A stretch of 64,000 nucleotides of DNA from Chitinophaga sp. (GTDB taxonomy: Bacteria; Bacteroidota; Bacteroidia; Chitinophagales; Chitinophagaceae): assembly GCF_019236475.1 (NCBI RefSeq), contig NZ_JAFAIX010000012.1:1120619-1184618 (forward strand), read 5' to 3'. Made by a program: the position numbers and the translations under genes. Position 1 is the first letter of the stretch. The number at the start of each line of letters is the position of its first letter. The notes beneath the pieces were generated by a model that did no database searches, was not told the origin of the DNA, and saw only the letters and a program-made list of their open reading frames with translations. This document shows, piece after piece, positions 25,201-47,643 of the stretch.

Positions 25201-27498
25201 AACCGTTTAATTGCAGCTACTTCTGGTATTGCGGATAATGGTAATGGCTGGAAAATTTCCACTCCTTCCAATGATGCGCAATATAGCTACTATCTACATG
25301 GTCCACTGGCAAGAACTCTTATCGGTTCCAAATTTGTCCAGGGTATCGATTATGCCTATACGTTACAAGGTTGGTTGAAGTACATCAATGGGGTGCAGTT
25401 GGATCCACAGAAGGATCTTGGTAAAGATGGTACTAACGGATATGCACCTGATGTAATGGCTTATTCCCTGGATTACTTTACCGGTGATTATAAGAACATT
25501 GGTGGTCAGAAATTGGGTATTAATTATCAGCATGCCACCACTGATATCACTGGTCAGAATTTGTACAATGGGAATATTAGTCGTACTACAGCGGCACTGA
25601 GTAATATTAATGGAGGCATGCCTGTGGGATATTCTTATCGTTATGATCAGTTGAACCGTATCCGCTCCATGCGCCGTCATCCATTGACTAATACCACTTC
25701 CACATGGGGAGCGGCACAAATTGGCACCAATCGTAATGGAGAAGACTATACCTATGATGCGAATGGTAACATCCTGACTTTGAACCGTAACGGTAATGAT
25801 GATAACCATCTTGCCATGGATAGGTTGGCATATCAGTATGAACGTGATGGAGAGGGGTATCTGTTGAATAACCAATTACAGTTAGTACATGATGCTGTTC
25901 CTGCATCTACCTATCCTTCGGATGTAGATGATATGACTACTGCATTCCGTTATGATTCTATTGGTAATCTGATTGCAGATGAGTCCAATGGCATTTCGGA
26001 GATCAAATGGACAGTTTATGGTAAGATACAATCCATTAGTAGTACAAATGGCTCATTAATTTACAAATATGATGCTGGTGGAAACAGGATTTACAAAGAA
26101 TTCCATCCTGCTTCTTCACCTTCCACCGTACAGCGTACGTGGTATCTCCGTGATCCTCAAGGACAAGTATTGGCAACCTATGGAAATACCAATGGGGATA
26201 ATGCAACCTATTGGAAAGAACAGTATCTTTATGGAAGTAGCAGGTTAGGCATGTGGCAGCCTGATATGCTGGTGGCGGGTGGATCTGTTGGAAACGCGAG
26301 TTCCATCTGGGGGCAGGGTAACCGTAAACGTTATGAGTTATCCAATCACCTGGGGAACGTATTGGCTACTATTGGTGATGAGAAAAGTGGAGATTATGCT
26401 ACGGTGTTTAACCAGACAGATTATACACCGTTTGGAGCGCAGATGGATGGTGCGGTTTGGAATTTAGGAGCAGGCTACAGGTATGGGTTTAATGGTAAGG
26501 AGAATGATAATGAGGTGAAGGGTGATGGGAATCAGCAGGATTATGGGATGAGGGTGTATGATCCGAGGATTGCGAAGTTCTTATCTGTGGACCCGTTGAC
26601 GCAAGATTATCCGTTTTATACACCTTATCAATTTGCTGGTAATAATCCAATAAAGTACATAGACTTGGATGGTGGTGAGCAATTAGACCCCATTTCTAGG
26701 TATTTATTTAATAATGCTGCTTTAACTATTGTCAAAGATCCGACATCTACTAAAGCAAAGGCGCTTAGCATCGGAATGGGAGTTGGTGGTTCAGTGGAAA
26801 AGCAAATAGGTTTTTACATTAACGCATTTAGGCATCCTATTAATACGGTTAAGTCCTTAGGAAAGATGCTGGTGCAGACTAATGAAGAACGTATTGCCGA
26901 CTATGCAAACTCTATTACTCTTAAATATACTGCTCTAGGCGATAACAATGCCATTTATGGAGCTGGCGCTGAGGCAACAACGGATATAATCTTTGGGCTA
27001 AGTAGTTTGAAGGCTGGGTTTAAATCGCCTACTGTTGCGGAGCCTCCCGCTCCATCAGAACCAGCTGGACCACCTCCAATAACCTTTGAATATGAAGGTG
27101 TTCAGCATGAGGTTCAGGCAACGACTCCATATAGAAGACCAACTAATGCTACTACCAATGCCCAAAGACGGGCAGTGAACCAGCCTGGAGCTACTTGTGT
27201 TACTTGCGGTGTATCAAATGTTAGAATGAATGCAGACCATATTACACCATTGTCTATCGAATTTTTGACAAGTGGTAATATAGATGCAACACATATGCGG
27301 TCATTAGAAGCTGTTCAGCCTCAGTGCGGAAACTGTTCAAATGCACAAGGTGTAACATTGCGAAATATAACCAGAGTAGTAAATAATCAGATACGACTGA
27401 GACAAAGCTCGAATCCAAGCCCAAGTCCAAGTCCAAATCCGCCTGCTACTCCAACTAATATTAATCAAATAGGACAAAATGGATCAACAACTCCTTAA
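19228..27498 (+). CDS. RHS-repeat polymorphic toxin with N-terminal signal peptide and C-terminal HNH-type nuclease tip
   Basis: 2756 aa. Start is TTG 19228 or GTG 19234. Signal peptide LLLTVVCLLFAITAMAG. DUF6443-like stretch (VVSFFDGTLRNRQSVTL...ETIYDAYGRAVANILPAP). Many YD repeats, an RHS core and a variable C-terminus (see sub-features). Confidence 0.92.
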   Translation: MPVKILSLYLRNLLLTVVCLLFAITAMAGIEPYQQKLQGTLKKGDTLIVKDEKFQNSSYNWAQIRNNKVVNVITLGLRSDTVFKKIPTFKCEADLKIEYWSSPDQDLPITLQHVSLKIGYDSVAGSIYQQMDQYRFANAYKIKVTINDISSKELGKLPPLFYLNAEVIVNRDYLPDPKADLVPIVTGASGGATSPKMRTTQLNATTAGAAPAYTVNVVWEGAPSNELYDLEWTFVDETSANGKSLAAAGANPSDALLAGMFRNNSTRISIEGNTYSIPLVQQHQYLLTRIRRVDETKGYRDEGDWVYKLMVNGQKVPAVLTLANGIDWYESGRNWQYSAVYAEDGKRKEVVSFFDGTLRNRQSVTLSSTANKAIVQETIYDAYGRAVANILPAPVNNETLRFYEGVNLGPDGQPYTWQNVLKNETGSCTIKPDPLNTSNGASRYYSANNDITTDPFRKNIPDAEGYPIAVTTYTPDNTGRPSVQGGVGFQLQPDNSNPLTNRSTRLYYGKPEQWELDRIFGNDIGYADHYLKNMTIDPNGQVSVSYQNSNGKVIATALTGSNPDTSLLPLSDRPEPRRIKYRMFTPDRFKFDAQLLKLTATSTYLAAVPYVKDTLELNIPDLIKKYQENNVTICSNCFYELSVQVSDDCGQILVDIKNDEIGSKLPDCGKNGNTQRIINIPVNKIGEYYVTVTLALNPYAIEAFTDDFIKNNTNLKTQFYFVLELLKRENFTKCFSDCSSCKAALGERSDFMQAFKQRMQQNGIDVVANQATIDVWVSAWYDVLYSNCQASRETCTPSPCDRLKGLLMEDVSPGGQFALFDANGNPLEPTINVISNNWRAVFPAMTSGPDYENNKFEVNDGVILTPNSPDFTLQMLVQYWQPQWAEKFINFHPERCAYDFCLGNSQYKKWDQRLTEVYTSIAELPAVLNGVQYSRTDPAWLLAADPYFKPGAPGAAYMGSFQNDLIRYSERVLKISAPLKSISDFVDFSLYCVDITGSINRYQPANTSTAWTQCDPEPSCRIPDLEWQYYLKFYLELKDKYYQQYMDSAFCKGKCRVGTSSAPVPGTELPGADCSGILPSDFRAYYEVINYEGYVTYEYTGNPIKEGVTVKVSVFDNGDYRDEFGTDVMGAEFTHYTPTKLVFNAGRGKHGRIPKVFLETVLQSCTSDPVYVDTCDPLYRNKQSRIGNAALPFAVSTDTMTLKQQVKDSLNKQLNSACSVNVDSFIAKLSHSSTYSGLSTTMRSSLRAGLLEICTKGGDLEHIFGSNTVKPGESTANGDVSMEQVMKRVIGYSVFTLDFNPWLTDAFYAYDKPGQSVAKVTSKTTAAICTKLDALRAEQQVNQPGMSLYNYLVSQYGSAMNLKEADFNALVKSCSNCRYLIDREIKLPVFLDGTAKGCITGIEFNAAMSDLSAAISDFQNTSNPNYNDVVRNYLNQRWGFTLGETEYALYKDQLQTSPNAILCNIPVYDQIDQNPLQCMFNLIDGAVEGGKRQYDQYIDSVRKDFKNRYIAVCSGVKATGDYSTSVQNYHYTLYYYDQAGSLVRTIPPAGVKLIDSPEQLEYIRKARDAGNSCNYNGPMQNTPVSDALLAIGDAVVNNNQALEMWVAGSKDPVHLVTPVGNNKAYFTMAVHNGHMEIAIYRLTSPSPEIEIVNSNIISVAVGTDFALRPFNHIVIQGTNLSDATSPMSVYMNGVLLQEEQNVPGSPLEWEIDGSGTFTTDIAMLRQMRVYNRLLASNEIMANADEMCMGLSPDYESGLRNNLVNWSRINTTDADGLPTQNPDGTVVGYTGGIYPKHNLKTSYAYNSLGGVVRQRTPDAKESKFWYDYTGKLVFSANAEQQREAGRYSYTKYDDLVRIVEVGEKRNAAVLTMPDFLPESTVQQQYGSGTDGQMTTTIYDVPVLNTSLYPQDNLRKRVAASIYRDAAGANPIATYYSYDPLGNVKSLWQQLDGLHEMKRLEYKYDLVSGKVNEVRYQFGKPDQFFYNYSYDADNRLIAATSGIADNGNGWKISTPSNDAQYSYYLHGPLARTLIGSKFVQGIDYAYTLQGWLKYINGVQLDPQKDLGKDGTNGYAPDVMAYSLDYFTGDYKNIGGQKLGINYQHATTDITGQNLYNGNISRTTAALSNINGGMPVGYSYRYDQLNRIRSMRRHPLTNTTSTWGAAQIGTNRNGEDYTYDANGNILTLNRNGNDDNHLAMDRLAYQYERDGEGYLLNNQLQLVHDAVPASTYPSDVDDMTTAFRYDSIGNLIADESNGISEIKWTVYGKIQSISSTNGSLIYKYDAGGNRIYKEFHPASSPSTVQRTWYLRDPQGQVLATYGNTNGDNATYWKEQYLYGSSRLGMWQPDMLVAGGSVGNASSIWGQGNRKRYELSNHLGNVLATIGDEKSGDYATVFNQTDYTPFGAQMDGAVWNLGAGYRYGFNGKENDNEVKGDGNQQDYGMRVYDPRIAKFLSVDPLTQDYPFYTPYQFAGNNPIKYIDLDGGEQLDPISRYLFNNAALTIVKDPTSTKAKALSIGMGVGGSVEKQIGFYINAFRHPINTVKSLGKMLVQTNEERIADYANSITLKYTALGDNNAIYGAGAEATTDIIFGLSSLKAGFKSPTVAEPPAPSEPAGPPPITFEYEGVQHEVQATTPYRRPTNATTNAQRRAVNQPGATCVTCGVSNVRMNADHITPLSIEFLTSGNIDATHMRSLEAVQPQCGNCSNAQGVTLRNITRVVNNQIRLRQSSNPSPSPSPNPPATPTNINQIGQNGSTTP
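24031..24460 (+). other. LamG/concanavalin-like insertion inside the RHS protein
   Basis: ...LEMWVAGSKDPVHLV...FNHIVIQGTNLSDATSPMSVYMNGVLLQEE...IAMLRQMRVYNRLLASNEI. This is the typical LamG_3-style ending (R-x-Y-N-R-x-L-S-x-x-E-I). Confidence 0.55.
24631..26679 (+). other. YD/RHS repeat block and RHS-associated core
   Basis: Repeats such as YAYNSLGGVVRQ, WYDYTGKLVFS, YSYDPLGNVKSL, YKYDLVSGKVNEV, YSYDADNRLIAA, YRYDQLNRIRSM, YTYDANGNILTL and YKYDAGGNRIYK. The core ends YGMRVYDPRIAKFLSVDPLTQDYPFYTPYQFAGNNPIKYIDLDGGE. Confidence 0.9.
26680..27498 (+). other. Variable C-terminal toxin region (linker, Pro-rich hinge, HNH/EndoVII-like nuclease, PS-rich tail)
   Basis: 273 aa after the RHS core. Hinge AEPPAPSEPAGPPP. 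Then CVTCG(27196)...NADHITPL...QPQCGNCSNAQG(27325), i.e. CxxC...DH...CxxC as in zinc-stabilised beta-beta-alpha-metal nucleases. Tail SSNPSPSPSPNPPATP. Confidence 0.6.
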
Positions 27499-27859
27499 GT
27501 TAGAATTGGAAATATCACATAGGCAACAGGAACTGTGCAGGAAATATGGAGCACCATATTTTGAAACATCAATAGATAAATTATTGGGAATTGCAACAGA
27601 AACCTTTGCAAAGCCTATGAAGTGGCCTATAAATGGTTTACGCCATCCGATAGAATCGGAGAATTCTTCTAATTGGTATATCTGGGCAGGTGAGGATTTT
27701 AAGGAGACGGATGATTTTTTTCAACCAATGCATATTTATCATCTGAATAAAGTATACCCCAAAATATTAGATTATTTGGGGTTACCTCCTGGTTGGCGCT
27801 TTTTGTTCGATGATACTTATGAAGATGTTTGGTATGATGAAAGTTTACTACATATTTAA
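27479..27859 (+). CDS. Putative cognate immunity protein
   Basis: 126 aa with no signal peptide. The ATG overlaps the toxin 3' end by 20 nt, the classic toxin-immunity arrangement. No family recognised with confidence. Confidence 0.7.
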   Translation: MDQQLLKLELEISHRQQELCRKYGAPYFETSIDKLLGIATETFAKPMKWPINGLRHPIESENSSNWYIWAGEDFKETDDFFQPMHIYHLNKVYPKILDYLGLPPGWRFLFDDTYEDVWYDESLLHI

Positions 27860-29243: not shown

Positions 29244-29289
29244 AAATAGTATAATGGCTAGGTCTTCCAACCTGGCCATTATACTATTT
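29244..29289 (+). terminator. Hairpin terminator
   Basis: aaatagtataatggc...gccattatactattt, a perfect 15-bp stem with a 16-nt loop, directly after the stop at 29222. Confidence 0.6.
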
Positions 29290-30351: not shown

Positions 30352-30420
30352 TTATTCTAATATTATCGTACAACTCTAATCGTAAGCTTATAAAAGATTA
30401 ATAAAGATGATTAAAAATCA

Positions 30421-30819: not shown

Positions 30820-30839
30820 AAGTCAAGTAAAAAACTAGC

Positions 30840-31711: not shown

Positions 31712-31760
31712 GGGTATAATTCAATGAGAAGACCTATTAGATCTCCTCATTGCCTCTACC

Positions 31761-32672: not shown

Positions 32673-32685
32673 AATGCATGATTGA

Positions 32686-33144: not shown

Positions 33145-33150
33145 GGTGTA

Positions 33151-34167: not shown

Positions 34168-34741
34168 GGTCTCAAAAGTACTATGGGCCTACGTGGAATG
34201 AAAATTACAATCTATTATAGGTCATAACATAAAGTTATAACTGTTATAAAAATGCTGCATGTACGAAACGTTGCTGGTATGTATTATCGTCAAAAAAAAA
34301 GAAGGTACATGATATGAATGATGAGTGGTTTGTAATATTCCTTAAAGCGGGCATATTCTTTATGAATAAATGTTTGTCAAGTAGGCCATGGTAGAAGGAT
34401 GTATGGTTTTTTTGTGGAGTTGTAAAAGTGCATACCACAATAGTGCTATTTAAAGTTTTTTCTTTAAAGAATGGAATTGAATGGTTATTTTTGCTTATGT
34501 AGATATCCTATATCTGTCGAAGATATTTAACGTTAGCCCGAAATAGGAGTGTTATTCTTTTATTCTGTGAGACCATATAAATTAATACTACTATGCCTAT
34601 TATTCGCTCTGGAAGCGATTTTCGAGAAACGCAGCATTCCATTCATATCAATGAATTTGATATAGTGGGGATTTATATCAATCATCAGTCTTGGATGGGT
34701 ATCCACTAAATCAAAGTTATCTAGTTCATTGTAATGTTCTC

Positions 34742-37357
34742 ATGAAGAAAATTATCGCTCTATTTATCCCGCTATTGATAGCGAAGATCTCCTATGCCCA
34801 GAAAGTTTACCAGATACGAGCAGACAGTGTTCGGATTTATAATGTCTGTGATACGGCTGAATTGATTCTGGAAAACAGGACGCAAGGTGTGAATGGTTAC
34901 TTGTATAACAAAGGGGCCGGCCGTACTGAGTTTAGGAAGATTCAATTAAAGAAGATTGGTACCTCTCAGATTGCGATTGTGGGGCAGGATACGTTGGATT
35001 TGAATACGCTTCCTGGTATTGGCGGAATAGATACCGCTTACAGGGAAGGAGATTATATTAAGTATCTGAAGAGAAGCAATCTGTATGCTATTTATGCGCC
35101 CTTGCCGGATTTTAAGGTAGTACCCAATGGTGCGGAAACTCCATTTTCAGATTTTAAGGGTGATGCTATAACTGGTTTCTTTGCGTATAACTCACCAGAC
35201 ATGCCGCCGATTTCAGATCAGGCTCAAATAAATCCAGGCACAGGAAAGCAATTCTATGTAGGGCATGCTGTAAAGTCGGCCGCCATAGGTTATCAGATGG
35301 CTGTTAACTGGGATGGAGAAACACTTGGTCCTAAAGGCGCGTTCTTAAGAATAAAGGATGATACTAACACTGCTGGATGGGGAGCTTGGAGGGAACTGTT
35401 GTTTAAGGATTATGCAGACAGTAAGTACGCATTGACAAATAGTAGTCAAGATGACTTGCATGCTGTATTGAGCAGGGGAAATCAGAGTACCAATAGAATG
35501 TTGATAAATGCTATTCGTGATCCGGGCCCTCCTACCATCTCATTGGCTGTTGGTGATTATGACAGCGGTATCAATTCAGAAAGGGATGGTATACTGACGC
35601 TGCGTGCAGATGGGTTTGAAGCAGCGAGATGGATGAAATCAGTATTTGCAGTGAGTGATACGCTGAAAGTGGCTGGTAATATAGCTTGGCATCAGGGTAA
35701 TGATCAGCTCTTATTAAGAAATCGTGGTGAGTTTGACAATTCGGAACTTGATAATCTTGGCGGTTTGAATGGAACTGCACGAATTGCGTATCCTGATCAC
35801 TTTTCGAGTTTGTTAAGCTTCTCTAATCAGGGGAGCACGGGTACTTTCCAATTATTAGCGGGTTATACTGGTTCACTTCAATTCCGTAGTAAAATAGATG
35901 AAAGAATTTGGTCGCAATGGAAAACTATTTGGCATGATCAAAATGATGGCGCTGGTTCAGGTCTGGATGCGGATCTGCTGGATGGTTATGAACAAAAAAC
36001 AGAACCGGTAAATAATACCATTGTAAGAAGAGATAATGCTGGTAATATCAGCGCGCAATATTTTAACACCACTGCTGTTACCCAGCCAGGGTTTGATATT
36101 ACCAAAGTATTTGCAAGTAATGATAACTATGTCCGTGCAGTAGATGCAACCAGTATTAGGAAGTTTATAGGCTTGCCGGATGCGGGGGAAACCTTGCAGA
36201 GTGTAACGACTCGTGGGAATACTACAGACAAAACTTTGGTGGCTCCTGGATTACAGTTATCTCCAAGTGTAACGCTTGTAGCACCTCCTATTAGTGAATC
36301 ATATCTGAGTGTGAATACACCAAGTGGTTCTTTGTCTATAGGTTGTGCTAATCAGGGATGGGCACATTTCTTTACTAGTAACCCTCGTTTCTATTTTGAT
36401 AAGGAAATAGCTGTCAATGGTGGATTCCGTATTTATTCTTCCAATACGGTTTTAGATGACAAATATCTGAACTTCAATGAGGGACACGGTAATGGTATTC
36501 GTTTCTGGAATGGTTCTAATGACTATAAAATATTTATGTCTGCCACCAATGCATCTGGATTTCCGATTCCGAGCATTAGCGCACAAGAGAGCGATTATAA
36601 TATGTACTTCCGCATGAATGGTCTTAACCGTGGATTTGTTTTTGTGACGGGAGATAATCAACCTAAAGTGCAGATTGATGCTTCTGGGCTGACTTCAGGT
36701 GCGTGGCTACGTGTTAGAGGGGATAATGGGCTCTTTTTTGAAGATCATCATGGAGGGTTTCATATGATAGATGATTCCTGGATACGTACATATAATCATG
36801 TTTCATTTTTTGTTCCGAATGGATCTATTCTTAGAACTGACGGGGAATTACAAGTGGGTACGGATGGTTCAAAATTGAGAGTTCCAATGGGAGGAATTCC
36901 AACCATTGATGGCAACACTATTTTTCACGCTGGAAACTTACTGTATTCTGTAGCTGCAAATCCTGATAGGTTAGCCCAACGCGATGCCAGCGGAAACCTC
37001 TTCGCCAGCGGATTTTACCAATCTTCCAAAGCAAGCCTGAAGAAAAATATTGCTGATTTCAATGAAGCCGCGTTGCCGTTACTGAACAAAGTGCAGATCA
37101 AGCAATTTGTCTATAAAGACGATACAGCGGAAAACCTGCATTTTGGTATCATCGCAGATAGTACTGATTGGCATTTCTCTACCCGTAATCAGGATAAATT
37201 CGATACGAACAGTTCCCTTGCTATCACGATGAAAGCCGTGCAAGAATTGAGTGTTCAGAATAAAACGCTGGCGGAAGAAAATGAACAGTTGAAGAATCAG
37301 GTGGCTGAATTGCTGAAACGAATGGAAAACCTGGAAAAAAAGATTAGCAAAGATTAA
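34742..37357 (+). CDS. Exported tail-fibre-like protein, paralogue 1 (C-terminal intramolecular chaperone/S74-like domain)
   Basis: 871 aa from ATG 34742; the ORF-track TTG at 34691 adds 17 non-signal residues. Signal peptide MKKIIALFIPLLIAKISYAQ. Fibre-type motifs GSGLDADLLDG and TIVRRDNAGNISAQYF. C-terminal S74-like domain plus a coiled coil. Confidence 0.85.
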   Translation: MKKIIALFIPLLIAKISYAQKVYQIRADSVRIYNVCDTAELILENRTQGVNGYLYNKGAGRTEFRKIQLKKIGTSQIAIVGQDTLDLNTLPGIGGIDTAYREGDYIKYLKRSNLYAIYAPLPDFKVVPNGAETPFSDFKGDAITGFFAYNSPDMPPISDQAQINPGTGKQFYVGHAVKSAAIGYQMAVNWDGETLGPKGAFLRIKDDTNTAGWGAWRELLFKDYADSKYALTNSSQDDLHAVLSRGNQSTNRMLINAIRDPGPPTISLAVGDYDSGINSERDGILTLRADGFEAARWMKSVFAVSDTLKVAGNIAWHQGNDQLLLRNRGEFDNSELDNLGGLNGTARIAYPDHFSSLLSFSNQGSTGTFQLLAGYTGSLQFRSKIDERIWSQWKTIWHDQNDGAGSGLDADLLDGYEQKTEPVNNTIVRRDNAGNISAQYFNTTAVTQPGFDITKVFASNDNYVRAVDATSIRKFIGLPDAGETLQSVTTRGNTTDKTLVAPGLQLSPSVTLVAPPISESYLSVNTPSGSLSIGCANQGWAHFFTSNPRFYFDKEIAVNGGFRIYSSNTVLDDKYLNFNEGHGNGIRFWNGSNDYKIFMSATNASGFPIPSISAQESDYNMYFRMNGLNRGFVFVTGDNQPKVQIDASGLTSGAWLRVRGDNGLFFEDHHGGFHMIDDSWIRTYNHVSFFVPNGSILRTDGELQVGTDGSKLRVPMGGIPTIDGNTIFHAGNLLYSVAANPDRLAQRDASGNLFASGFYQSSKASLKKNIADFNEAALPLLNKVQIKQFVYKDDTAENLHFGIIADSTDWHFSTRNQDKFDTNSSLAITMKAVQELSVQNKTLAEENEQLKNQVAELLKRMENLEKKISKD
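37022..37357 (+). other. Peptidase S74 / intramolecular chaperone-like domain plus coiled-coil tail (paralogue 1)
   Basis: YQSSKASLKKNIADFNEAALPLLNKVQIKQFVYKDDTAENLHFGIIADSTDWHF...SSLAITMKAVQELSVQN fits the remembered S74 pattern (S-D-x-R-L-K-x-N-I ... L..L..V.Y.YK ... h-G-x-I-A-Q ... lv..l..a.qEL). Confidence 0.7.
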
Positions 37358-37379
37358 TTATAAAACCTGTATTCTTCTC

Positions 37380-39749
37380 ATGAAGATAATTATCGCCCTA
37401 TTTATTCCATTACTATTAGGAATAGCTACCTACGCTCAGAAAGTATATCAAATACGTGCCGACAGTGTTCGTATTTATAATGTCTGTGATACTGCTGAAT
37501 TGATCCTAGAAAACAAGACACAAGGTGTGAATGGTTACCTGTATAACAAAGGTTCCGGCCGTACTGAATTTAGCAAAATACAATTAAGGAAGATTGGTAC
37601 CTCGCAGATTGCGATTGTGGGTCAGGATACCTTGGATTTGAATACCCTGCCTGGTATTGGTGGTATTGATACTGCTTACAGGGAGGGAGATTATATTAAG
37701 TATCAGAAGAAAAGTAACCTCTACACTATTTATGCACCATTACCCGATTTTAGAGTAGTGCCCGATGGCCAGAATAATCCTTTTACAGATTACAAGGATA
37801 ACGCTATGACAGGCTTTAGTGCTTACAATTCTCCGGATATGCCGACTGTTTCAGATCAGGCTCAGGTGAATCCAGGCACTGGAAAACTATTTTATACCGG
37901 TCATGCAGTGAGGTATGGCGCTACCGGATATCAAATGGCGGTGAATTGGGATGGTGAAACCTTTGGACCTAAAGGCGCTTTTTTAAGAATCAAGGATGAT
38001 ACGAACCTTGCTGGATGGGGAGCCTGGAGAGAATTGTTATTTAAAGATTATGGGGATAAAAAATACGCAAAGACAGACAGTACCTACACAAAACTGAATC
38101 TTTCTACTCCTGGTCAGGCGCAGGTTTCCTGGAATAACCTGATCAATGTACCCACGCTAAGTGTCGTAGAACAGGATAATTTGACTACCGTACTAACGCG
38201 AGGAAATGTCAGCAAACTGAAAATGTATGTGCATGCCGGGACTGACATGGCAGCTCCCACTATTTCACTGGGTATAGGAGGTAATAATAGCGGTATCAAT
38301 GCAGAAAGTGGATTAGGTATACTAACACTGCGTTCTTATGGTAAGGAAATCGCCAGATGGAGGTACGATTCATTCACTGTGAGTACGGTCTTAAAAGTAA
38401 ATGGGGATGTATATGCACCGAAATTCAATACCGCTGTTTCTTTGGAGACAAGTATGGTCCCTTCCAGGGTGTATGCCGGTACAGAGGATGGCTTTATCCG
38501 CCCAATGGATCAATATAGTATTAAAAAATTTCTCGGTATACCTCGTGATGGAGAAACCTTGGCAAGTGTTTGCAATCGTAACAACCTTACTAACAGAATA
38601 CTGATTGCACAGGGACTTCAGCTTGACTCAACAAATGAAAATATAAGTATCACTAAATCCAATGATCTAATTCTAGCGATAAATAGTCCGTATGGTACTG
38701 TGAACATTGGCTGTAATACGCAAGCCAATGCTAGTTTTACTACCACTGCTAACGGATATTATTTCGATAAGGATTTATATGTACCAACTGCAATACGTGT
38801 TGGCGATTATGGTTATAATACAGTCCTGGATGGAAAAAATTTAAGCCTCGCTTCTGGAGATGGTAATGGTATTCGATTCTTGAATGGTAGTGACGAATCG
38901 AAAATTTTCGTGTCGTCATCAGCTACTTCTGGATATCCGATGTTGGGACCCTTCTCCAGTGATGTTAATATGTACTTCCGTATGAACAGGGATAACCGCG
39001 GATTTGTGTTCGTAACTGGAGATAATAACCCAGCAGTTCAGATTGATGCCCAGGGGATGTATGTTGCACAAGCGCTCCGTTTGATGGGGACTGGTGGTTT
39101 AATCTTCCAGAAATATGGAGGTGGATTCGAAATGCCCGATAATTCATGGGTACGTGTATATGGCGGGAAAAATTTCACTACAGCTACAGGCATACTCCGC
39201 ACTGAAAGTGAGTTGCAAGTAGGCGTGAATGGAACAAAATTGAAAGTACCGGCAACAGGTATTCCTACGATAGATGGTAAGACTATTTTCCATGCTGGAA
39301 ACTTGCAGTATTCTTCAGATGTATACCCTAATTACCTCGCACAGCGCGATGCCAGCGGTAGCCTCTTTGCCAGCGGCTTTTACCAATCCTCCAAAGCAAG
39401 CCTGAAGAAAAATATCGCTGATTTCAATGAAGCCGCATTACCATTACTGAACAAAGTGCAGATCAAACAATTTGTCTATAAAGATGATAAAGATGAAAAC
39501 CTGCATTTCGGTATCATCGCGGATAATACGGACTGGCACTTCTCTACACGTAATCAGGATAAATTCGATACCAACAGTTCCTTGGCTATTACTATGAAAG
39601 CCGTGCAGGAATTGAGTGAGGAAAATACAGTGCTTAAAAAACAGGTAGCTGCATTACAGCAAAACGAGGAAGTAGAACAGTTGAAAAATGAAGTGTCTGA
39701 ACTGCTGAAACGGGTGGAGAGTGTAGAGAAAATGATAAAGAAGGATTAA
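37380..39749 (+). CDS. Exported tail-fibre-like protein, paralogue 2
   Basis: 789 aa with signal peptide MKIIIALFIPLLLGIATYAQ. N- and C-termini are near-identical to the other paralogues. 22-nt spacer from paralogue 1. Confidence 0.85.
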   Translation: MKIIIALFIPLLLGIATYAQKVYQIRADSVRIYNVCDTAELILENKTQGVNGYLYNKGSGRTEFSKIQLRKIGTSQIAIVGQDTLDLNTLPGIGGIDTAYREGDYIKYQKKSNLYTIYAPLPDFRVVPDGQNNPFTDYKDNAMTGFSAYNSPDMPTVSDQAQVNPGTGKLFYTGHAVRYGATGYQMAVNWDGETFGPKGAFLRIKDDTNLAGWGAWRELLFKDYGDKKYAKTDSTYTKLNLSTPGQAQVSWNNLINVPTLSVVEQDNLTTVLTRGNVSKLKMYVHAGTDMAAPTISLGIGGNNSGINAESGLGILTLRSYGKEIARWRYDSFTVSTVLKVNGDVYAPKFNTAVSLETSMVPSRVYAGTEDGFIRPMDQYSIKKFLGIPRDGETLASVCNRNNLTNRILIAQGLQLDSTNENISITKSNDLILAINSPYGTVNIGCNTQANASFTTTANGYYFDKDLYVPTAIRVGDYGYNTVLDGKNLSLASGDGNGIRFLNGSDESKIFVSSSATSGYPMLGPFSSDVNMYFRMNRDNRGFVFVTGDNNPAVQIDAQGMYVAQALRLMGTGGLIFQKYGGGFEMPDNSWVRVYGGKNFTTATGILRTESELQVGVNGTKLKVPATGIPTIDGKTIFHAGNLQYSSDVYPNYLAQRDASGSLFASGFYQSSKASLKKNIADFNEAALPLLNKVQIKQFVYKDDKDENLHFGIIADNTDWHFSTRNQDKFDTNSSLAITMKAVQELSEENTVLKKQVAALQQNEEVEQLKNEVSELLKRVESVEKMIKKD
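39387..39749 (+). other. S74/intramolecular chaperone-like domain plus coiled coil (paralogue 2)
   Basis: Same SSKASLKKNIADFNEAALPLLNKVQIKQFVYKDD..NLHFGIIAD motif as paralogue 1. Confidence 0.7.
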
Positions 39750-39771
39750 TTAATAAAACTGAATTCTTCCC

Positions 39772-42135
39772 ATGAAGAAAATTATTGCGCTATTTATCCC
39801 ACTGTTGATAGGAACTATCTCCTATGCCCAAAAGGTATATCCGATTCGTGCAGATAGTGTTCGTATTTATAATGTCTGTGATACGGCTGAATTGATCCTG
39901 GAAAACAGGACACAAGGTGTGAATGGTTACCTGTATAACAAAGGGGCCGGCCATACTGAATTTAGGAAAATACAATTAAAGAAAGTGGGTGCCTCACAGA
40001 TTGCGATTGTGGGGCAGGATACCTTGGATTTGAATACGCTTCCTGGTATTGGCGGAATAGATACCGCTTACAGGGAAGGAGATTATATCAAGTATCTGAA
40101 GAGGAATAATCTGTATGCTATTTATGCACCGTTGCCGGATTTTAAGGTGGTGCCTAATGGCTCGGAAACGCCTTTTGCAGACTATAAAAGTAGTGCTGTG
40201 ACTGGTTTTAGCGCCTATGATTCACCAGATATGCCAGTAGTTTCAGATCAAGCACCAGTTAATGTTGGTCCAGACAAGAAATATTATGTGGGGCATGTGG
40301 TAAAATATGGGGATGTAGGTTATCAAATGGCAGTGAACTGGGATGGCGAAACATTTGGTCCTAAAGGAGCATTCCTAAGAATAAAGGATGATACAAACCT
40401 TGCTGGATGGGGGGCTTGGAGAGAACTGTTGTTTAAAGATTATGGGGATAAAAAATATGCAAATACAGACAGTACTTACACGAAACGGAACCTTTCTACC
40501 CCCGGTCAGGCGCAGGTTTCCTGGAATAACTTGATCAATGTATCCCCGTTGCCTGCCCTAGAGACGGATAATTTGACTACCGTACTAACGAGAGGGAATG
40601 TCAGCAAACAAATAATGTATGTGGATGCCGGGGATGACCAGGCAGCCCCCACTGTTTCACTGGCCATAGGAGGTCATGATAGCGGTATCAATGCAGAAGA
40701 TAATGGCATCCTGTCGATGCGCTCTCTGGGTAAGGAAATAGCCAGATGGAGCAACGATTCATTCACCGTGAATTCGATCTTCAAAGTAAATGGTTATGTA
40801 TTAGCACCGAAATTCAATACCAGTGCTCCTTTAGAGACAAATATAAAACCTACCAGGGTGTATGCTGATTATGGGGAGGGCACTCTCCGCGCAATGGATA
40901 CAATGAGTATTAGAAATTTTCTTGGCATCTCTATCAGAGGTGAAAACTTGTCTGATGTTATCTGGCGTGGAAGCGTCACTGACAAAATGCTGATTGCTCC
41001 TGGACTCCAGTTTTATGGCACAATGAATGGAATAACAAGTATCGATAAATCCAAGGAAGGTCCAGTACTGGCTATAAATAGTCAATATGGTACTATGAAC
41101 ATTGGTTGTAATACGCAAGACTCTGCTAAATTTACAACCACTGTCAACGGATATTATTTCGATAAGGGTTTAAATGTACCAGGTGCACTACATATTGGTG
41201 ATAAGGCAGGCCTGGATGGGAAAAATTTAAACCTCACTGTTGGAGATAATAATGGTATTCATTTCTGGAATGGTAGTGACGAATGGAAACTTATCATGTC
41301 GTCATCAGCAGCTTCCGGATATCCCATGCTGAGTCCTTTCTCCAGTGATTATAATATGTACTTCCGTATGAACAGGAATAACCGAGGATTTGTGTTCGTA
41401 ACTGGTGATAATAACCCAGCAGTTCAGATGGATGTCGTGGGGATGTATGTTGGGCAAACGCTCCGTTTGATGGGGACTGGTGGCTTAATCTTCCAGAAAT
41501 ATGGAGGTGGATTCGAAATGCTCGATAGTGCCTGGATACGTGTGTCTGGCGGGAAAAATTTCAATACAGTTGCGGGCATACTCCGAACTGAAAATGAGTT
41601 GCAAGTTGGCGTGAATGGGACGAAATTGAAAGTACCAGCAACAGGTATACCAACGATAGATGGTAAAGCTATTTTCCACGCTGGAAACTTCCTGTATTCA
41701 TCAGATGTATCCCCTAATTATATCGCACGGCGCGATGCCAGCGGTAGCCTCTTCGCCAGCGGCTTTTACCAATCCTCCAAAGCAAGCCTGAAGAAAAATA
41801 TCACTGATTTCAATGAAACAGCATTACCGTTGCTGAACAAAGTGCAGATCAAGCAATTTGTCTATAAAAATGATACAACAGAGAACTTGCATTTCGGTAT
41901 CATCGCGGATAATACGGACTGGCACTTCTCTACACGTAATCAGGATAAATTCGATACGAACAGTTCCCTTGCTATTACTATGAAAGCCGTGCAGGAATTG
42001 AGTGAGGAAAATGCAGCGCTTAGAAAACAGATAGCTGAATTACAAAAAAAGCAGGAAGTAGAACAGTTGAGAAATAAAGTGTCTGAACTGCTGAAACGCT
42101 TGGAGAGTCTGAAGAAAATGATAAAAGAGGATTAA
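39772..42135 (+). CDS. Exported tail-fibre-like protein, paralogue 3
   Basis: 787 aa with signal peptide MKKIIALFIPLLIGTISYAQ. Collinear with paralogue 2 throughout. Confidence 0.85.
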   Translation: MKKIIALFIPLLIGTISYAQKVYPIRADSVRIYNVCDTAELILENRTQGVNGYLYNKGAGHTEFRKIQLKKVGASQIAIVGQDTLDLNTLPGIGGIDTAYREGDYIKYLKRNNLYAIYAPLPDFKVVPNGSETPFADYKSSAVTGFSAYDSPDMPVVSDQAPVNVGPDKKYYVGHVVKYGDVGYQMAVNWDGETFGPKGAFLRIKDDTNLAGWGAWRELLFKDYGDKKYANTDSTYTKRNLSTPGQAQVSWNNLINVSPLPALETDNLTTVLTRGNVSKQIMYVDAGDDQAAPTVSLAIGGHDSGINAEDNGILSMRSLGKEIARWSNDSFTVNSIFKVNGYVLAPKFNTSAPLETNIKPTRVYADYGEGTLRAMDTMSIRNFLGISIRGENLSDVIWRGSVTDKMLIAPGLQFYGTMNGITSIDKSKEGPVLAINSQYGTMNIGCNTQDSAKFTTTVNGYYFDKGLNVPGALHIGDKAGLDGKNLNLTVGDNNGIHFWNGSDEWKLIMSSSAASGYPMLSPFSSDYNMYFRMNRNNRGFVFVTGDNNPAVQMDVVGMYVGQTLRLMGTGGLIFQKYGGGFEMLDSAWIRVSGGKNFNTVAGILRTENELQVGVNGTKLKVPATGIPTIDGKAIFHAGNFLYSSDVSPNYIARRDASGSLFASGFYQSSKASLKKNITDFNETALPLLNKVQIKQFVYKNDTTENLHFGIIADNTDWHFSTRNQDKFDTNSSLAITMKAVQELSEENAALRKQIAELQKKQEVEQLRNKVSELLKRLESLKKMIKED
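41773..42135 (+). other. S74/intramolecular chaperone-like domain plus coiled coil (paralogue 3)
   Basis: SSKASLKKNITDFNETALPLLNKVQIKQFVYKNDTTENLHFGIIADNTDWHF... Confidence 0.7.
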
Positions 42136-42157
42136 TTAATAAAACTGAATTCTTCCC

Positions 42158-44530
42158 ATGAAGAAACTTATTTCGCTATTTATCCCACTATTGATAGGAA
42201 CAATTTCCTACGCCCAAAAAGTATATCAGATTCGTGCGGACAGTGTTCGGATTTACAATGTATGTGATACCGCTGAATTGATCCTGGAAAACAGGACGCA
42301 AGGTGTAAATGGTTACCTATATAATAAAGGTGCCGGACGTACTGAGTTTAGGAAAATACAATTAAAGAAGATTGGTACCTCGCAGATTGCAATTGTGGGG
42401 CAGGATACCTTGGATTTGAGTACCCTGCCAGGTATTGGTGGTATTGATTCACTTAGATATGAATCATCAACTGGTATATTTTACGCACATAAAAGCGCCG
42501 GCGGCGAAATTGCAATTCCCACAGGTTTGGTTGATGACATGGCAGCCCGTTATACCAAGAAACAGACAGATATGGGTTTTATTCAGGCCTCACCAAGTTC
42601 ACCTCAATCTGCTGGGTTCTCCCTATCAGGTGTAGGAACGTTTTATAATTCTTCCTCCACATTTGATCCAGTAAATAATTCGAGCATAATGGTTCAGAAT
42701 AATTCAAGTATATATACTGGTGGTGCATCCATTGCATTTCGGGCAGCTAATTATCGGGCCACATCTTGGATCGCAGCCCAGACAGGTGGAGTAGGTCCTG
42801 GGAGGATAAGTTCGCTTAACTTTGGTAATGATGGTTATACATTGATGTCACTATGGGGATTTACTAACGCTAATACTATGCTGACAGTTAATGGACAAAT
42901 ATTAGCAAATGGCCCATTAACGGTACGTGGCTCCATATCAGGCAATAGTCTTGACGTAGCGGACATTAGATCCAATGGATTACAAAGTGGTCTTACACTG
43001 GCTGATCGGTATTTTGCAGGAGTTGATCCTACGGGATCTAATACTAATAGGTGGAGTATTGTGGCAGACACTGAACGGTTATCATTTTTGAATAATAACA
43101 TTCGCCGCAATGCAACTAATAAGGCGGCCCTCTCAATAGCACCCAGTAACTCAATAGCTTCAATATACAATGTTGGGATCAATGTTCTCGATCCACAATC
43201 CACATTGGATGTAAGAGGAGAAGATATGCGATTACGCGGAGCTGGTAGTAATTCTTCCCTATTAGTAAAAATGGATGCATTTAGTAATGGTGCTAGTATT
43301 CAGTCATTAGATAGTAATGGTGTTGAATCACGGAGTTTATACCTCAATCCTGCCGGAGGGGATGTAGTGGCTGGAGACCAAATTATTGCAAAAGGATTGT
43401 CTTTTAAAACTGCTACAGGATCTACCTCAAAGCTGAGCCTTACTGCAGCAACTAATGGAGATGCTGTGAGTGTAAATTCCGAATTTGGTTCCGTTACGAT
43501 GGGCTGCCATAACAATGGATGGGCACATTTTGAAACAACCAATCCCAGATTCTATTTTGATAAAGAAGTAGCTATAAAAGGGATATTACGCATTTATGAT
43601 AGTAATACTACCATCGAAAGGAATTATGTGAATATACATGCAGGTGAAGGCAATGGCCTCCGTTTCTGGGATGGAAGTGATGACTCTAAAATAGTTTTAT
43701 CCTCGCCCGCAGCATCTGGTTATACTAGCCCTAGTCAGTATACCAGTGACCTCAATATGTATTTTATTATGAAAGGGCTGAACCGTGGTTTTATTTTTGT
43801 GACTGGTGATAACCAACCTAAAGTTCAGATTGATAAATTTGGACTGACTTCTAGCGACTGGTTGCGGGTAAGAGGTGACCATGGGCTCTATTTTGAAGAC
43901 TTCGGAGGTGGTTTCTACATGACAGATAACGAATGGATTCGTACCTATAACGGAAAATCGTTCTTGGTGCAAGGTGGTACTCTCAGAGCTGATGGTGAAT
44001 TTCATGTGGGCCAGAATGGTTATACAATGAGAGTTCCTAACAACGGCGATCCGACTATTAAAAACAATGTAATTTATCACGCTGGGAATTTACTATTTTC
44101 TACCTCTGCCACTCCCAATTATTTAGCCCAGCGCGATGCCAGCGGCAGCCTCTTCGCCAGCGGCTTTTACCAATCCTCCAAAGCAAGCATGAAGAAAAAT
44201 ATCGCTGATTTCAACGAAGCGGCGCTACCGTTGCTGAATAAAGTGCAGATCAAACAATTTGTCTATAAGGATGATAAAGCAGAAAACTTGCATTTCGGTA
44301 TCATCGCGGATAGTACTGACTGGCATTTCGCTACGCGTAATCAAGATAAATTCGATACCAACAGTTCCTTGGCCATCACGATGAAAGCAGTACAAGAATT
44401 GAGTGAGCAGAATAAAACAATTGTAGCAGAAAATGCTGCGCTGAAAGATCAAAATGAAGTGCTGAAAAGCCAGATGGTGGAGTTGCTGAAACGCTTGGAG
44501 AATCTGGAGAAAAAAGTGAACAAGGATTAA
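42158..44530 (+). CDS. Exported tail-fibre-like protein, paralogue 4 (different shaft)
   Basis: 790 aa with signal peptide MKKLISLFIPLLIGTISYAQ. It shares residues 1-~97 and the last ~330 aa with the others. The middle is unrelated and contains the fibre-type motif VGINVLDPQSTLDVRG. Confidence 0.85.
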   Translation: MKKLISLFIPLLIGTISYAQKVYQIRADSVRIYNVCDTAELILENRTQGVNGYLYNKGAGRTEFRKIQLKKIGTSQIAIVGQDTLDLSTLPGIGGIDSLRYESSTGIFYAHKSAGGEIAIPTGLVDDMAARYTKKQTDMGFIQASPSSPQSAGFSLSGVGTFYNSSSTFDPVNNSSIMVQNNSSIYTGGASIAFRAANYRATSWIAAQTGGVGPGRISSLNFGNDGYTLMSLWGFTNANTMLTVNGQILANGPLTVRGSISGNSLDVADIRSNGLQSGLTLADRYFAGVDPTGSNTNRWSIVADTERLSFLNNNIRRNATNKAALSIAPSNSIASIYNVGINVLDPQSTLDVRGEDMRLRGAGSNSSLLVKMDAFSNGASIQSLDSNGVESRSLYLNPAGGDVVAGDQIIAKGLSFKTATGSTSKLSLTAATNGDAVSVNSEFGSVTMGCHNNGWAHFETTNPRFYFDKEVAIKGILRIYDSNTTIERNYVNIHAGEGNGLRFWDGSDDSKIVLSSPAASGYTSPSQYTSDLNMYFIMKGLNRGFIFVTGDNQPKVQIDKFGLTSSDWLRVRGDHGLYFEDFGGGFYMTDNEWIRTYNGKSFLVQGGTLRADGEFHVGQNGYTMRVPNNGDPTIKNNVIYHAGNLLFSTSATPNYLAQRDASGSLFASGFYQSSKASMKKNIADFNEAALPLLNKVQIKQFVYKDDKAENLHFGIIADSTDWHFATRNQDKFDTNSSLAITMKAVQELSEQNKTIVAENAALKDQNEVLKSQMVELLKRLENLEKKVNKD
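44174..44530 (+). other. S74/intramolecular chaperone-like domain plus coiled coil (paralogue 4)
   Basis: SSKASMKKNIADFNEAALPLLNKVQIKQFVYKDDKAENLHFGIIADSTDWHF... Confidence 0.7.
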
Positions 44531-44553
44531 TGATTAGAACTGAATTTATTTAT

Positions 44554-45108
44554 ATGAAGAAGATATCCATACTTATAATTTGTCTTTTTACTAGTTGCCT
44601 ATCATTTGCACAACTGCCAGGTGGTGCTGTCAGTCTTTTGAAGGATGTTTATATCTATTCAACTACCAATTCTCTACTGTATCGTTTAACAACGAACAAC
44701 TATCTGGTGACGCATAACGAAATTCGACAGAAAATATCACAAGGGTATTTTACAGCATTGAATCTGAATGCTATCCCCGCTGATAACAACTGCATCACAG
44801 CAACAAATGCCAAGTTGTGGATAAGTATTGATGCGACGAAATTACCTACAAATGGAAGACTACCTGTATGGCAGGAATTAGTTCCTAAGGCTTCCTGTAC
44901 AGGAGATTTACAAAAAATGATTAACGGCGTTTGTGAAACCGCAGTGTGGAGATGTTATGATCAGGAATTGGACCATGTTGACCCTCCATCACCTCCTAAC
45001 AGACCTTTTTCGCTCTATTGGTATCGTGTTTACTCGGACTATGTATGGAGTGATGGAACACGCGCTTATCGATCAACAATGGAGGTTACTATGGATGCAT
45101 GCTTTTAA
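44554..45108 (+). CDS. Small secreted Cys-containing protein, last gene of the fibre operon
   Basis: 184 aa from ATG 44554 (MKKISILIICLFTSCLSFAQ). The ORF-track start at 44530 overlaps the stop of paralogue 4. It is preceded by a diverged copy of the inter-paralogue spacer. Confidence 0.6.
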   Translation: MKKISILIICLFTSCLSFAQLPGGAVSLLKDVYIYSTTNSLLYRLTTNNYLVTHNEIRQKISQGYFTALNLNAIPADNNCITATNAKLWISIDATKLPTNGRLPVWQELVPKASCTGDLQKMINGVCETAVWRCYDQELDHVDPPSPPNRPFSLYWYRVYSDYVWSDGTRAYRSTMEVTMDACF

Positions 45109-45217
45109 TGCATGTTAGTGTTCTCTTTCTGAATTATAAGTAGGAGACTTTAGCCAGAAAATGGCGGGAAAAATTGAATCAGCTATAATTCTGAAATTTC
45201 TTATTTTCAGATTAAAA

Positions 45218-45937
45218 ATGAAATTTATCCCGCCATTGCTGTCTTTACTTCTGTTGGCCTGTAACAGTACAGAACATACGCCCATCCTTACAGATTCAGT
45301 TTCTGTTAGTCGTTCGAGGGATGCTATGATAGATGAGCAGGAAAATGAAAAAGCATATGGACTGGATGATTTTGATCATTACGTTTATGGCACATATGGA
45401 TACGATTCTACCCGATTTACGTTAATCCCCACCAAATCCACCATCACCAATCAATCTGATGAGGACGATCGCCTCCAGAATACCGCTGAATTTATAAACA
45501 AAGATTATCAACTGAAGTATATTTGGACTGGTACAGAAAATGGTGACTCCTCCACTTCGCAACTATTTGTCAATAATAAACCCGTACAATTCTTTGATCC
45601 ACAAACAAATAAGGAAGGAGACCTTCCCGGAGATCTGGATTTTGTAGAAGGAACGCAACTAGGGTTATATACCTGGCCCTCCAAAAAATATTTACTCATA
45701 GTAGGACAGGCACATGGGGCGCAAAGCTGGTACAGAGGAATCCTATATGGTATATTGGTGAACGTTTCAGTTGATCCTATGAGGGCTTATCTGCTCGGTA
45801 CTTATGAAGATCCTGGGGACTTTTACCTGAAATTAAATACCAATCAACAATTGACTTATATTTCTTGTATGCCGGATTTCGGTGAAAGAGGTGCTGTTGA
45901 TAGCTTGTATCCGCATCTGCATATCATTGAAAAATAA
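45218..45937 (+). CDS. Lipoprotein, function unknown
   Basis: I prefer ATG 45218 (MKFIPPLLSLLLLACNS, lipobox) over 45161. 239 aa. Confidence 0.6.
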   Translation: MKFIPPLLSLLLLACNSTEHTPILTDSVSVSRSRDAMIDEQENEKAYGLDDFDHYVYGTYGYDSTRFTLIPTKSTITNQSDEDDRLQNTAEFINKDYQLKYIWTGTENGDSSTSQLFVNNKPVQFFDPQTNKEGDLPGDLDFVEGTQLGLYTWPSKKYLLIVGQAHGAQSWYRGILYGILVNVSVDPMRAYLLGTYEDPGDFYLKLNTNQQLTYISCMPDFGERGAVDSLYPHLHIIEK

Positions 45938-45965
45938 TAGGGAGACAGAGCTGGCTGTCTCCCTA
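45938..45965. terminator. Bidirectional hairpin terminator (TAGGGAGACA family)
   Basis: tagggagacag-agctgg-ctgtctcccta, a perfect 11-bp stem between convergent stops (45937 + / 45975 -). T-rich on the minus-strand side. Confidence 0.65.
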
Positions 45966-45974
45966 TTAACTATT

Positions 45975-47519: not shown

Positions 47520-47610
47520 AGGCGTATACTGATTTAATGCAAAATTACTGCTGTTAAGAAAACATGCGATCGTGACTTTTATCTCGATAAGTTTATCTCC
47601 GCCCAAGCAT

Positions 47611-47643
47611 AAAAAAGGACACCAGGACAAAGGCCCTGGTGTC
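47611..47643 (-). terminator. Rho-independent terminator of the EEP nuclease gene
   Basis: Minus strand reads gacaccagg-gcctttgt-cctggtgtc followed by cttttttat. 9-bp stem. Confidence 0.7.

Follow-up and report, generated by a model that had tools for sequence, protein, structure and literature searches.

What might a bacterium gain from phage-type tail fibres that carry export signals and are encoded away from any phage? The question is raised by four tandem genes, here called g1 to g4, in a 64,000-nucleotide stretch of DNA (the window in what follows) from a Chitinophaga metagenome-assembled genome (MAG; NCBI RefSeq assembly GCF_019236475.1, contig NZ_JAFAIX010000012.1, positions 1,120,619 to 1,184,618). 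A first-pass annotation, made by a model from the sequence alone, had proposed that the cell displays or secretes the four proteins as alternative fibres on a common anchor, a host-encoded repertoire of a kind that it did not know to have been described, outside any phage or tailocin context. Much of that proposal stands, as the proteins are cell-encoded, carry Sec signals and an intact S74 dyad and share a constrained N-terminal module; its novelty does not, and the array is not free-standing. On balance, g1 to g4 probably encode exported, homotrimeric adhesin fibres akin to the "mosaic adhesive trimer" (MAT) fibres of Bdellovibrio bacteriovorus, and serve an Rhs toxin system encoded nearby as its repertoire of target binders (Table 1).

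The four proteins share an architecture whose two ends are strongly conserved. Each begins with MKK or MKI, continues with a hydrophobic core of ten residues that averages 2.9-3.2 on the Kyte-Doolittle scale and reaches (S/T)YA just before a Gln, so that the Sec-type signal peptides read earlier in all four are borne out and fit the Q-rule for signal peptidase I substrates of Bacteroidetes (PMC5837995). Behind the signal peptide, residues 21-97 are 90-99% identical among the four, which agrees with the common N-terminal module of about 97 residues that had been described, and the S74 segment at the other end is 88-95% identical. The Pfam profile PF13884 (Peptidase_S74) scores 30.2-32.6 bits in g1-g4 at a cut-off of 22, and the dyad, S762-K-A-S-L-K767 in g1, has the S-x4-K spacing; its Ser and Lys are invariant in 25 diverse family members, the residue after the Ser varying (K/L/D/R/M). 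Cleavage at the dyad Ser would free C-terminal fragments of 110-119 aa. The S74-like chaperone domain first recognised by eye is thus found by profile search as well, a test that the first-pass annotation had itself set, and gp37-like segments found inside the proteins add fibre homology to it.

Between these ends the proteins part company. The first ~235 aa are common to g1-g3, g4 sharing just the first 97 aa, and the C-terminal ~350 aa are common to all four, with a tip-proximal "core" that is 43-77% identical; the paralogues thus differ most in their middle, and it is not at the extreme distal end that they are least related. Of the classical design of a conserved N-terminus and a variable distal part, to which these proteins had been likened, the first half consequently holds and the second needs correction. 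The fibre-typical internal motifs are all present as quoted, GSGLDADLLDG and TIVRRDNAGNISAQYF in g1 only, VGINVLDPQSTLDVRG in g4 only, and a LAQRDASG(S/N)LFASGFY-type motif in g1-g4, where its form in g3 is IARRDASGSLFASGFY. In pairwise Nei-Gojobori comparisons of the paralogues, the ratio of nonsynonymous to synonymous substitution (dN/dS) is 0.007-0.12 in the N-module at dS 0.3-0.8 and 0.04-0.18 in S74; given such low values the conservation of the N-module reflects selection, recent duplication being insufficient to explain it. The core retains 43-58% amino acid identity between non-recent pairs, at saturated dS. The most recent duplicates, g2 and g3 (dS ~0.2), have a dN/dS of 0.5 in the tip-proximal core and 0.86 in the coiled coil, raised values that hint at relaxed or diversifying selection just after duplication.

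Structure prediction adds to this picture. The AlphaFold2 model of the N-module is all-beta, with ten strands, at a predicted local distance difference test (pLDDT) score of 72; a fold search of the model against the PDB returned nothing below E 0.9, and a sequence profile of the module found no match there. For the C-terminal 330 aa, modelled as a monomer (pLDDT 69), the top Foldseek matches include the endosialidase, MyRF and GA-1 intramolecular chaperones (3GW6 and 7DC3 at probability 0.99, 3GUD at 0.90), none of them at E<=0.001, the expected outcome for a monomer model of an intertwined trimer. The N-domain also has a single, nearly universal cysteine (Cys36 in g1, 34847-34849, within NVCDTAEL), displaced by one residue in Terrimonas and Sediminibacterium (NDSCTAEL), which could form an intermolecular disulphide to a partner or between protomers.

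The N-module defines a large family of proteins. Against 1.84 billion representative sequences its profile matches at least 867 clusters of proteins, grouped at 50% identity, and the named relatives among the matches listed (the best 120-150) all belong to Chitinophagaceae or Chitinophagales, with Chitinophaga, Niastella, Longitalea, Terrimonas, Sediminibacterium and Puia as named members. In every listed relative with a complete N-terminus the match begins at about residue 20-30, and 119 of the 120 best relatives consist of a signal peptide ending "AQ", then a (K/H/Q)VYQIRADSVRIYNVCDTAEL module, then a variable body. In 103 of 118 cases the residue two places ahead of the conserved VYQIRAD start is Gln, in agreement with the Q-rule (PMC5837995). 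Total length among the best 120 ranges from 485 to 1477 aa and most have an S74 end, the C-terminal ends of the family as a whole being a mosaic of S74 with coiled coil or at least four other recurrent endings. Copy number, which the first-pass annotation had recommended surveying in relatives, proved to be variable: four genes here and at least one more in the same MAG, at least eight in Chitinophaga sp. Hz27, one at the corresponding locus of C. dinghuensis, and two to six distinct genes, nearly always on one strand, in 37 of 70 loci fetched through the N-module alone. The Prokaryotic Genome Annotation Pipeline (PGAP) names the family "tail fiber domain-containing protein". Literature searches on DUF6443, Chitinophaga fibres and Rhs-fibre linkage found nothing, and neither the N-module family, nor its size, nor its linkage to an Rhs module appears in the literature searched.

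In light of that label, the first alternative to be weighed is that the fibres belong to a particle whose genes lie elsewhere in the genome, be it a phage, prophage, tailocin or extracellular contractile injection system, or that they are what is left of a decaying prophage. The likeness is real where it exists. Among GenBank phages, residues ~300-760 of g1 match distal long-tail-fibre subunits and residues ~750-863 match S74 ends. Further, as in the S74 fibres and tailspikes of phages (the K1F endosialidase, the T5 pb1 L-shaped tail fibre and the GA-1 neck appendage; PF13884), a coiled coil comes after S74 with its Ser-x4-Lys dyad, parts of the interior are similar to gp37-like distal subunits, intramolecular-chaperone structures head the fold search, and a T5-like L-shaped fibre gives a weak sequence match (E 0.013). 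However, residues 1-300 of g1 have no match in GenBank phages, the N-terminus is unlike any phage attachment domain, and the N-module is absent from 2.9 million IMG/VR viral contigs; phage matches are confined to the shaft and S74, so that these two parts are phage-type and the adaptor and export signal cellular. Signal peptides, present in 119 of the 120 best homologues, are incompatible with assembly of a particle in the cytoplasm, and strong purifying selection, intact reading frames and a named membership drawn, among the matches listed, from one bacterial family or order speak equally against a phage. The statement that no capsid, sheath, tube, baseplate, lysis or integrase gene lies within 10 kb can be extended, in that Pfam and PHROGs searches over all 64 kb came upon no gene for virion parts, lysis or an integrase. 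Altogether the data support cell-encoded proteins that are not phage-borne; on this evidence the alternative is largely refuted, and it is very unlikely that the present genes stem from a phage or tailocin.

Tailocins of the R and F types nevertheless offer an instructive parallel, for there too alternative fibres set the target range of a killing device, and a small gene directly 3' of the fibre genes, as g5 is here, occupies the position of the fibre-assembly chaperone genes in tailocin clusters. They differ in that no sheath, tube or baseplate genes occur here and the proteins are Sec-exported, and g5, unlike the tailocin chaperones, carries its own signal peptide and shows no family match and no similarity to tail-fibre assembly proteins. 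In phages, the position after a fibre gene is likewise the place of a tail-fibre chaperone or tip adhesin gene.

A second misleading label is the one that NCBI PGAP puts on g4 and on some relatives (P0008 and P0009), [quoted passage not shown], its basis being a local motif of ~55 residues. Residues 566-619 of g4 do contain a local Shufflon_N-like motif, WLRVRGD.GL.FED.GGGF.M.D..WIR, which corresponds to positions ~224-290 of the profile and covers 54-66 residues of its 324 positions, and alternative adhesin ends are common to both systems. In shufflons, though, the variants are invertible segments, whereas here they are separate genes, and no inverted repeats were found in 34000-46000 and no recombinase among the annotated ORFs (open reading frames). 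A PilV identity was rejected for g4, which has a type I signal peptide in place of a prepilin leader, only a partial profile match and no inverted repeats; lacking leader and repeats, it has been misannotated.

The kind of protein, by contrast with what had been supposed, is already known. Caulton et al. (2024) described 21 MAT fibres in B. bacteriovorus, each with a signal peptide, a conserved beta-rich N-domain of ~130 aa that has no PDB homologue and whose surface partner is unknown, a long trimeric fibre and a variable tip, 13 of them ending in a self-cleaving S74 domain (PMC10769870). The fibres lie on the predator surface, one binds prey glycans, and Table S3 of that study lists members in other phyla, five of them from the Fibrobacteres, Chlorobi and Bacteroidetes (FCB) group (PMC10769870). 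Of the 29 MAT genes in Peredibacter, 20 are reported to be contiguous. The assertion that no system of this kind had been described consequently falls, since the MAT superfamily has just this design, is surface-displayed and has listed FCB members (PMC10769870). The correspondence extends to most features of the array: the proteins are cell-encoded and not phage-borne, a Sec signal peptide leads at once into a conserved beta-rich N-domain common to all paralogues (here with the match at residues ~21-90), the fibre is long and phage-like with mosaic tips with or without an S74 domain (predicted to be self-cleaving here), paralogues are many per genome and may form contiguous arrays, the N-domain lacks a PDB homologue and a known partner, and even the GenBank label, "tail fiber domain-containing", is the same. 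The differences are a shorter N-domain (~78-115 aa against ~130 aa in MATs), which among the matches listed is found at the sequence level in Chitinophagaceae/Chitinophagales only, a host that is not a known obligate predator, fibres known from sequence where MATs are experimentally characterised, and a tight linkage to an Rhs polymorphic-toxin module that is absent from the MAT paper. As MAT fibres are surface-displayed and one is glycan-binding (PMC10769870), they count as a precedent for exported adhesin fibres here.

It is this linkage that gives the fibres a putative function. All genes of the cluster at 7747-27859 of the window lie on one strand, and the cluster is possibly an Rhs export system not described before; p250 (start codon uncertain) and the immunity protein apart, each of its proteins bears a signal peptide or lipobox. 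Its 2756-aa giant exceeds the TIGR03696 cut-off (45.8 bits against 32.5, at aa 2399-2482) and is, as judged by core, variable tip and immunity gene, an Rhs polymorphic toxin. The first gene product, p784, has homologues of 788-970 aa in other lineages that end in outer-membrane beta-signal-like motifs, and may thus be an outer-membrane protein, a candidate translocon or anchor. The ends read in p784-type proteins (~800-970 aa) are ..ATYFKTF, ..VIWTKVF, ..LSLKYHFKN and ..LAIHYQLN, the genes lying at 7747-10101 in the window, 13883-16324 in L071 (Niastella), 5518-8430 in L072 (Mucilaginibacter) and 6514-8880 in L073 (a Chitinophagales-like contig), loci in which the same core order is kept. The PA14 giant, whose homologues in Mucilaginibacter, Saprospiraceae, Flavobacteriaceae and Cytophagaceae are all annotated hypothetical, has a YD-like C-terminus (FYEYDDEGTLIRV) and an N-terminal stretch, SGPKQPE..MVNLFSGAFKYNIPLL, with a sub-threshold SpvB match (E 0.057), and the two giants might form a Tc-toxin-like B/C pair. 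With that SpvB match alone, no PDB match and hypothetical homologues throughout, a Tc-toxin (SpvB/TcB) identity of the PA14 giant was rejected and is kept as a lead; TANFOR polymorphic toxins (PMC7073777) were set aside for the giants for want of a TIGR02542 match.

Across the 70 loci, 55 of which have full flanks, a neighbourhood of 10 kb around the fibre genes contains Rhs-giant homologues in 36, usually upstream and on the same strand, and long-match homologues of the PA14 giant in 19, mostly downstream; homologues of p367 occur in 17 loci, 5' of the PA14 giant. One or other giant is present in 51 of the 70 loci and in 45 of the 55 that are fully flanked. The placement of the array outside phage and tailocin genes stands, and to it must be added a tie to an Rhs toxin cluster that the first reading had not connected with the fibres. 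A median of 1659 nt separates the end of the Rhs core from the start of the first fibre gene, enough to hold a toxin tip together with an immunity gene. In L060 the order is p367, PA14 giant, a 249-aa gene, fibre and Rhs giant, and in L032 and L033 the fibre likewise lies between the two giants; in Niastella koreensis, by independent gene calls, three fibre genes come first and genes for proteins of 813 aa, 367 aa and 2678 aa (PA14) follow, the gaps being 10-80 nt. The association can also be approached from the other side. When loci were collected by homology to the PA14 giant alone, one of them, L073, proved to carry two N-module fibres immediately 5' of the module. A stricter rule, under which the module would never be without an S74 fibre, had to be given up, because in Niastella, L073 and Mucilaginibacter the proteins encoded at the fibre position gave no S74 match in Pfam.

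Contact-dependent toxin systems (CdiA with its receptor-binding domain; Rhs/Tc YD-repeat toxins) are comparable in that a polymorphic Rhs toxin and its immunity gene stand beside diversifying, putatively target-binding proteins, and in their fast turnover against conserved flanks. They differ in that binding would here reside on separate trimeric fibres, not inside the toxin polypeptide, and in that no type V, VI or VII secretion marker was seen here, the Tc-like SpvB signal being sub-threshold.

The main rival to a toxin-linked repertoire is that g1 to g4 are free-standing MAT-like adhesins for substrates, fungal hyphae, prey or partner cells, independent of the Rhs module and near it only because both occupy a shared hypervariable island. 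Several observations do weigh against the linked reading. In this window the array lies 6.9 kb from Imm33, with three opposite-strand metabolic genes between and its own upstream region, so that co-transcription with the toxin is excluded here; a terminator of its own adds to the appearance of independence. No giant lies within 10 kb in 10 of the 55 fully flanked loci, the Mucilaginibacter core module (L072) has in front of it another kind of signal-peptide protein, of 814 aa, which ends in a coiled coil and in which S74 was not detected, and the linkage as a whole could be co-residence in variable islands without joint function. Bdellovibrio MAT fibres have not been reported with toxins, and the many non-S74 tip kinds suggest general adhesion. 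Doubt also attaches to the protein models, which are moderately confident at best and without a significant Foldseek match, and to the MAT parallel, in that N-domain profile searches returned no Bdellovibrio or Table S3 protein among the best 120-150 matches listed, no direct comparison with MAT sequences being part of them. Against free-standing adhesins, however, the linkage recurs in at least five genera with order, strand and short gaps kept, fibres lie between the giants in L060 and L032/33, and the reverse approach through the PA14 giant led back to fibres in L073. Independence of the toxin is accordingly unlikely in our judgement, though with appreciable weight.

A further point against surface-displayed fibres is the want of a recognised route across the outer membrane, since Pfam and NCBIfam searches found no type IX secretion C-terminal domain, autotransporter barrel or lipobox in them. 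Type IX secretion cargo was rejected, as neither the fibres, g5, g6 nor either giant carries an NCBIfam sorting domain (TIGR04183/TIGR04131) and the fibre C-terminus is S74; a trimeric autotransporter adhesin, as g1-g4 have no YadA-type C-terminal anchor by Pfam; and a lipoprotein route, for lack of a lipobox. That no outer-membrane export signal is recognised is consistent with a role inside the envelope, in the periplasm or on the inner face of the outer membrane, as tethers, as assembly or chaperone parts for the giants or as decoys, and it accords with this that all module partners are also periplasm-directed and that a LolA-like carrier is encoded in the module. Yet segments like those of receptor-binding phage fibres and the fast divergence of middle and tip fit an exposed, diversifying surface, and the MAT precedent is surface-exposed, which makes an internal role improbable.

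If g1 to g4 are target-binding fibres of the Rhs system, a mechanism can be sketched. The precursor would cross the inner membrane, and signal peptidase I would cut after Ala19 to leave Gln20, probably cyclised to pyroglutamate. In the periplasm the S74 chaperone domain and coiled coil would nucleate trimerisation of the shaft, after which S74 would remove itself by Ser762/Lys767 autoproteolysis (g1 numbering), freeing its C-terminal fragment. The nearly invariant, beta-rich N-domain of ~78 aa would dock every paralogue on the same envelope partner, and the divergent middle and tip-proximal parts would bind different structures on target surfaces. The array would then be one arm of a larger envelope system that comprises the ~800-aa putative outer-membrane protein, the 367-aa protein, the lipoprotein, the PA14 giant, the LolA-like protein, the DUF6443-Rhs toxin and the immunity protein, within which the fibres would most likely give cell-cell contact or target choice for delivery of the Rhs toxin.

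The gene structure of the array agrees with a single unit. The earlier description of four tandem genes (871, 789, 787 and 790 aa) with near-identical 22-nt spacers free of terminators is supported by the ORFs and by a hairpin scan, which found no terminator-like hairpin in spacers 1-3; its end coordinate of 44553 is 23 nt too far, the g4 stop being at 44530. For g1 the ORF list reaches a TTG at 34691, and the ATG at 34742 was preferred, since the paralogues begin in line with it and so does an identical database entry of 871 aa (P0001). The only Bacteroidota-type -7 box found 5' of g1 by motif scan is TATTTTTG, and a promoter may accordingly lie at 34486; a sigma-70 promoter scan was uninformative, the host being one of the Bacteroidota. 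Past g4, a spacer resembling the other three leads to g5, a fifth signal-peptide gene, whose homologues adjoin fibre genes in 13 related loci and are mostly directly 3' of one. The last gene before the hairpin is g6, kept 3' of g5 in C. dinghuensis, and the only strong hairpin, 3' of both, likely ends a g1-g6 transcription unit. Two antisense ORFs inside g4 on the minus strand, 42835-43203 (122 aa) and 43697-44080 (127 aa), have no homologues in related loci and are most likely spurious.

Comparison with C. dinghuensis (L001), which is syntenic with the window and 96-97% identical in the right-flank genes, suggests how the locus has changed. One fibre (58-68% identical) there stands in place of four, followed by homologues of g5 and g6, and the Rhs giants are 29-38% identical. 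Between Imm33 and g1 the window carries an additional 6.9 kb, for whose content C. dinghuensis has no room because its fibre gene lies within 0.5 kb of its Rhs gene. Within this stretch (27860-34167) four small plus-strand ORFs without a family match, which may be orphan immunity genes, come first, in a low-GC stretch (34-36% at 28-32 kb), and three minus-strand genes follow, for an SBP_bac_11 solute-binding protein, a DsrE-like protein and a SoxA/TsdA-type dihaem cytochrome c. Beyond the hairpin, a 551-aa signal-peptide protein without a family match (45975-47630, minus strand) has no counterpart at the syntenic C. dinghuensis locus, so that its gene is probably a lineage-specific insertion. 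GC skew is positive (0.06-0.20) throughout 1-44000 and approximately zero from 44 kb on. By these comparisons the region is an island that evolves fast while its flanks are conserved, which is what a conflict system would lead one to expect.

Table 1. Features of the toxin module and the fibre array, in order along the window (position 1 is its first nucleotide)
Feature	Position	Strand	Description	Basis
p784	7747..10101	+	signal-peptide protein, first gene of the module	
p367	10104..11207	+	signal-peptide protein	
p176	11207..11737	+	predicted lipoprotein	
PA14 giant, 2223 aa	11734..18405	+	signal peptide, PA14 domain, YD-like C-terminus	
p250	18461..19213	+	LolA3-like, below cut-off; between the two giants	
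Rhs-type polymorphic toxin (predicted), 2756 aa	19228..27498	+	DUF6443, Rhs-associated core at aa 2399-2482, toxin tip of ~270 aa	
Imm33-like immunity protein	27479..27859	+	overlaps 3' end of the Rhs gene	Pfam
Array upstream region	34168..34741	+	574 nt, non-coding; Bacteroidota-type -7 box TATTTTTG starts at 34486	
g1	34742..37357	+	871-aa fibre	ORF, Pfam, paralogue alignment, PHROGs, phage comparison, dyad alignment
g1 signal peptide	aa 1-19 = 34742-34798	+		sequence features
g1 N-domain	aa 20-97 = 34799-35032	+		paralogue alignment
g1 rest		+	unique middle with gp37-like segments, shared "core", 110-aa C-terminal chaperone and coiled coil	
g1 S74 dyad	Ser762 (codon 37025-37027), Lys767	+		dyad alignment
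Spacer 1	37358..37379	+	22 nt, TTATAAAACCTGTATTCTTCTC	sequence read
g2	37380..39749	+	789-aa fibre; signal peptide and N-domain as in g1; predicted cleavage before Ser671 (codon 39390-39392)	
Spacer 2	39750..39771	+	22 nt, TTAATAAAACTGAATTCTTCCC	sequence read
g3	39772..42135	+	787-aa fibre; predicted cleavage before Ser669 (codon 41776-41778)	
Spacer 3	42136..42157	+	22 nt, same as spacer 2	sequence read
g4	42158..44530	+	790-aa fibre; predicted cleavage before Ser674 (codon 44177-44179)	
g5	44554..45108	+	184-aa Cys-rich protein, Q-rule signal peptide	
g6	45161..45937	+	258-aa predicted lipoprotein (LLLLAC/NS cleavage)	
Bidirectional hairpin	45935..45968	.	14-bp stem	terminator-hairpin scan

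The implications reach beyond this locus. Exported, cell-encoded fibres of phage type would extend beyond obligate predators and constitute a large and expanding toolkit in abundant soil and rhizosphere Bacteroidota, and the labels that PGAP gives them (phage tail fibre, PilV) can mislead both prophage prediction and plasmid annotation. A constant adaptor, a swappable binder and a self-removing chaperone would also be attractive for engineering target specificity. More speculatively, the fibres may be the exchangeable targeting part of an undescribed envelope delivery system for Rhs toxins, the N-domain allowing any fibre to be plugged in, a possibility that we regard as doubtful and advance tentatively; its proposed core is found in Chitinophagaceae and Mucilaginibacter, with PA14-giant homologues in other Bacteroidota. 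Swapping fibres re-aims a tailocin, and if the same were true here, gain, loss and recombination of fibre genes (one in C. dinghuensis, four here) would re-aim the toxin at different neighbours. For those Bacteroidota Rhs toxins that lack signals for type VI or type IX secretion, the module and its fibre repertoires would thus provide a concrete and testable candidate for how targets are reached and chosen.

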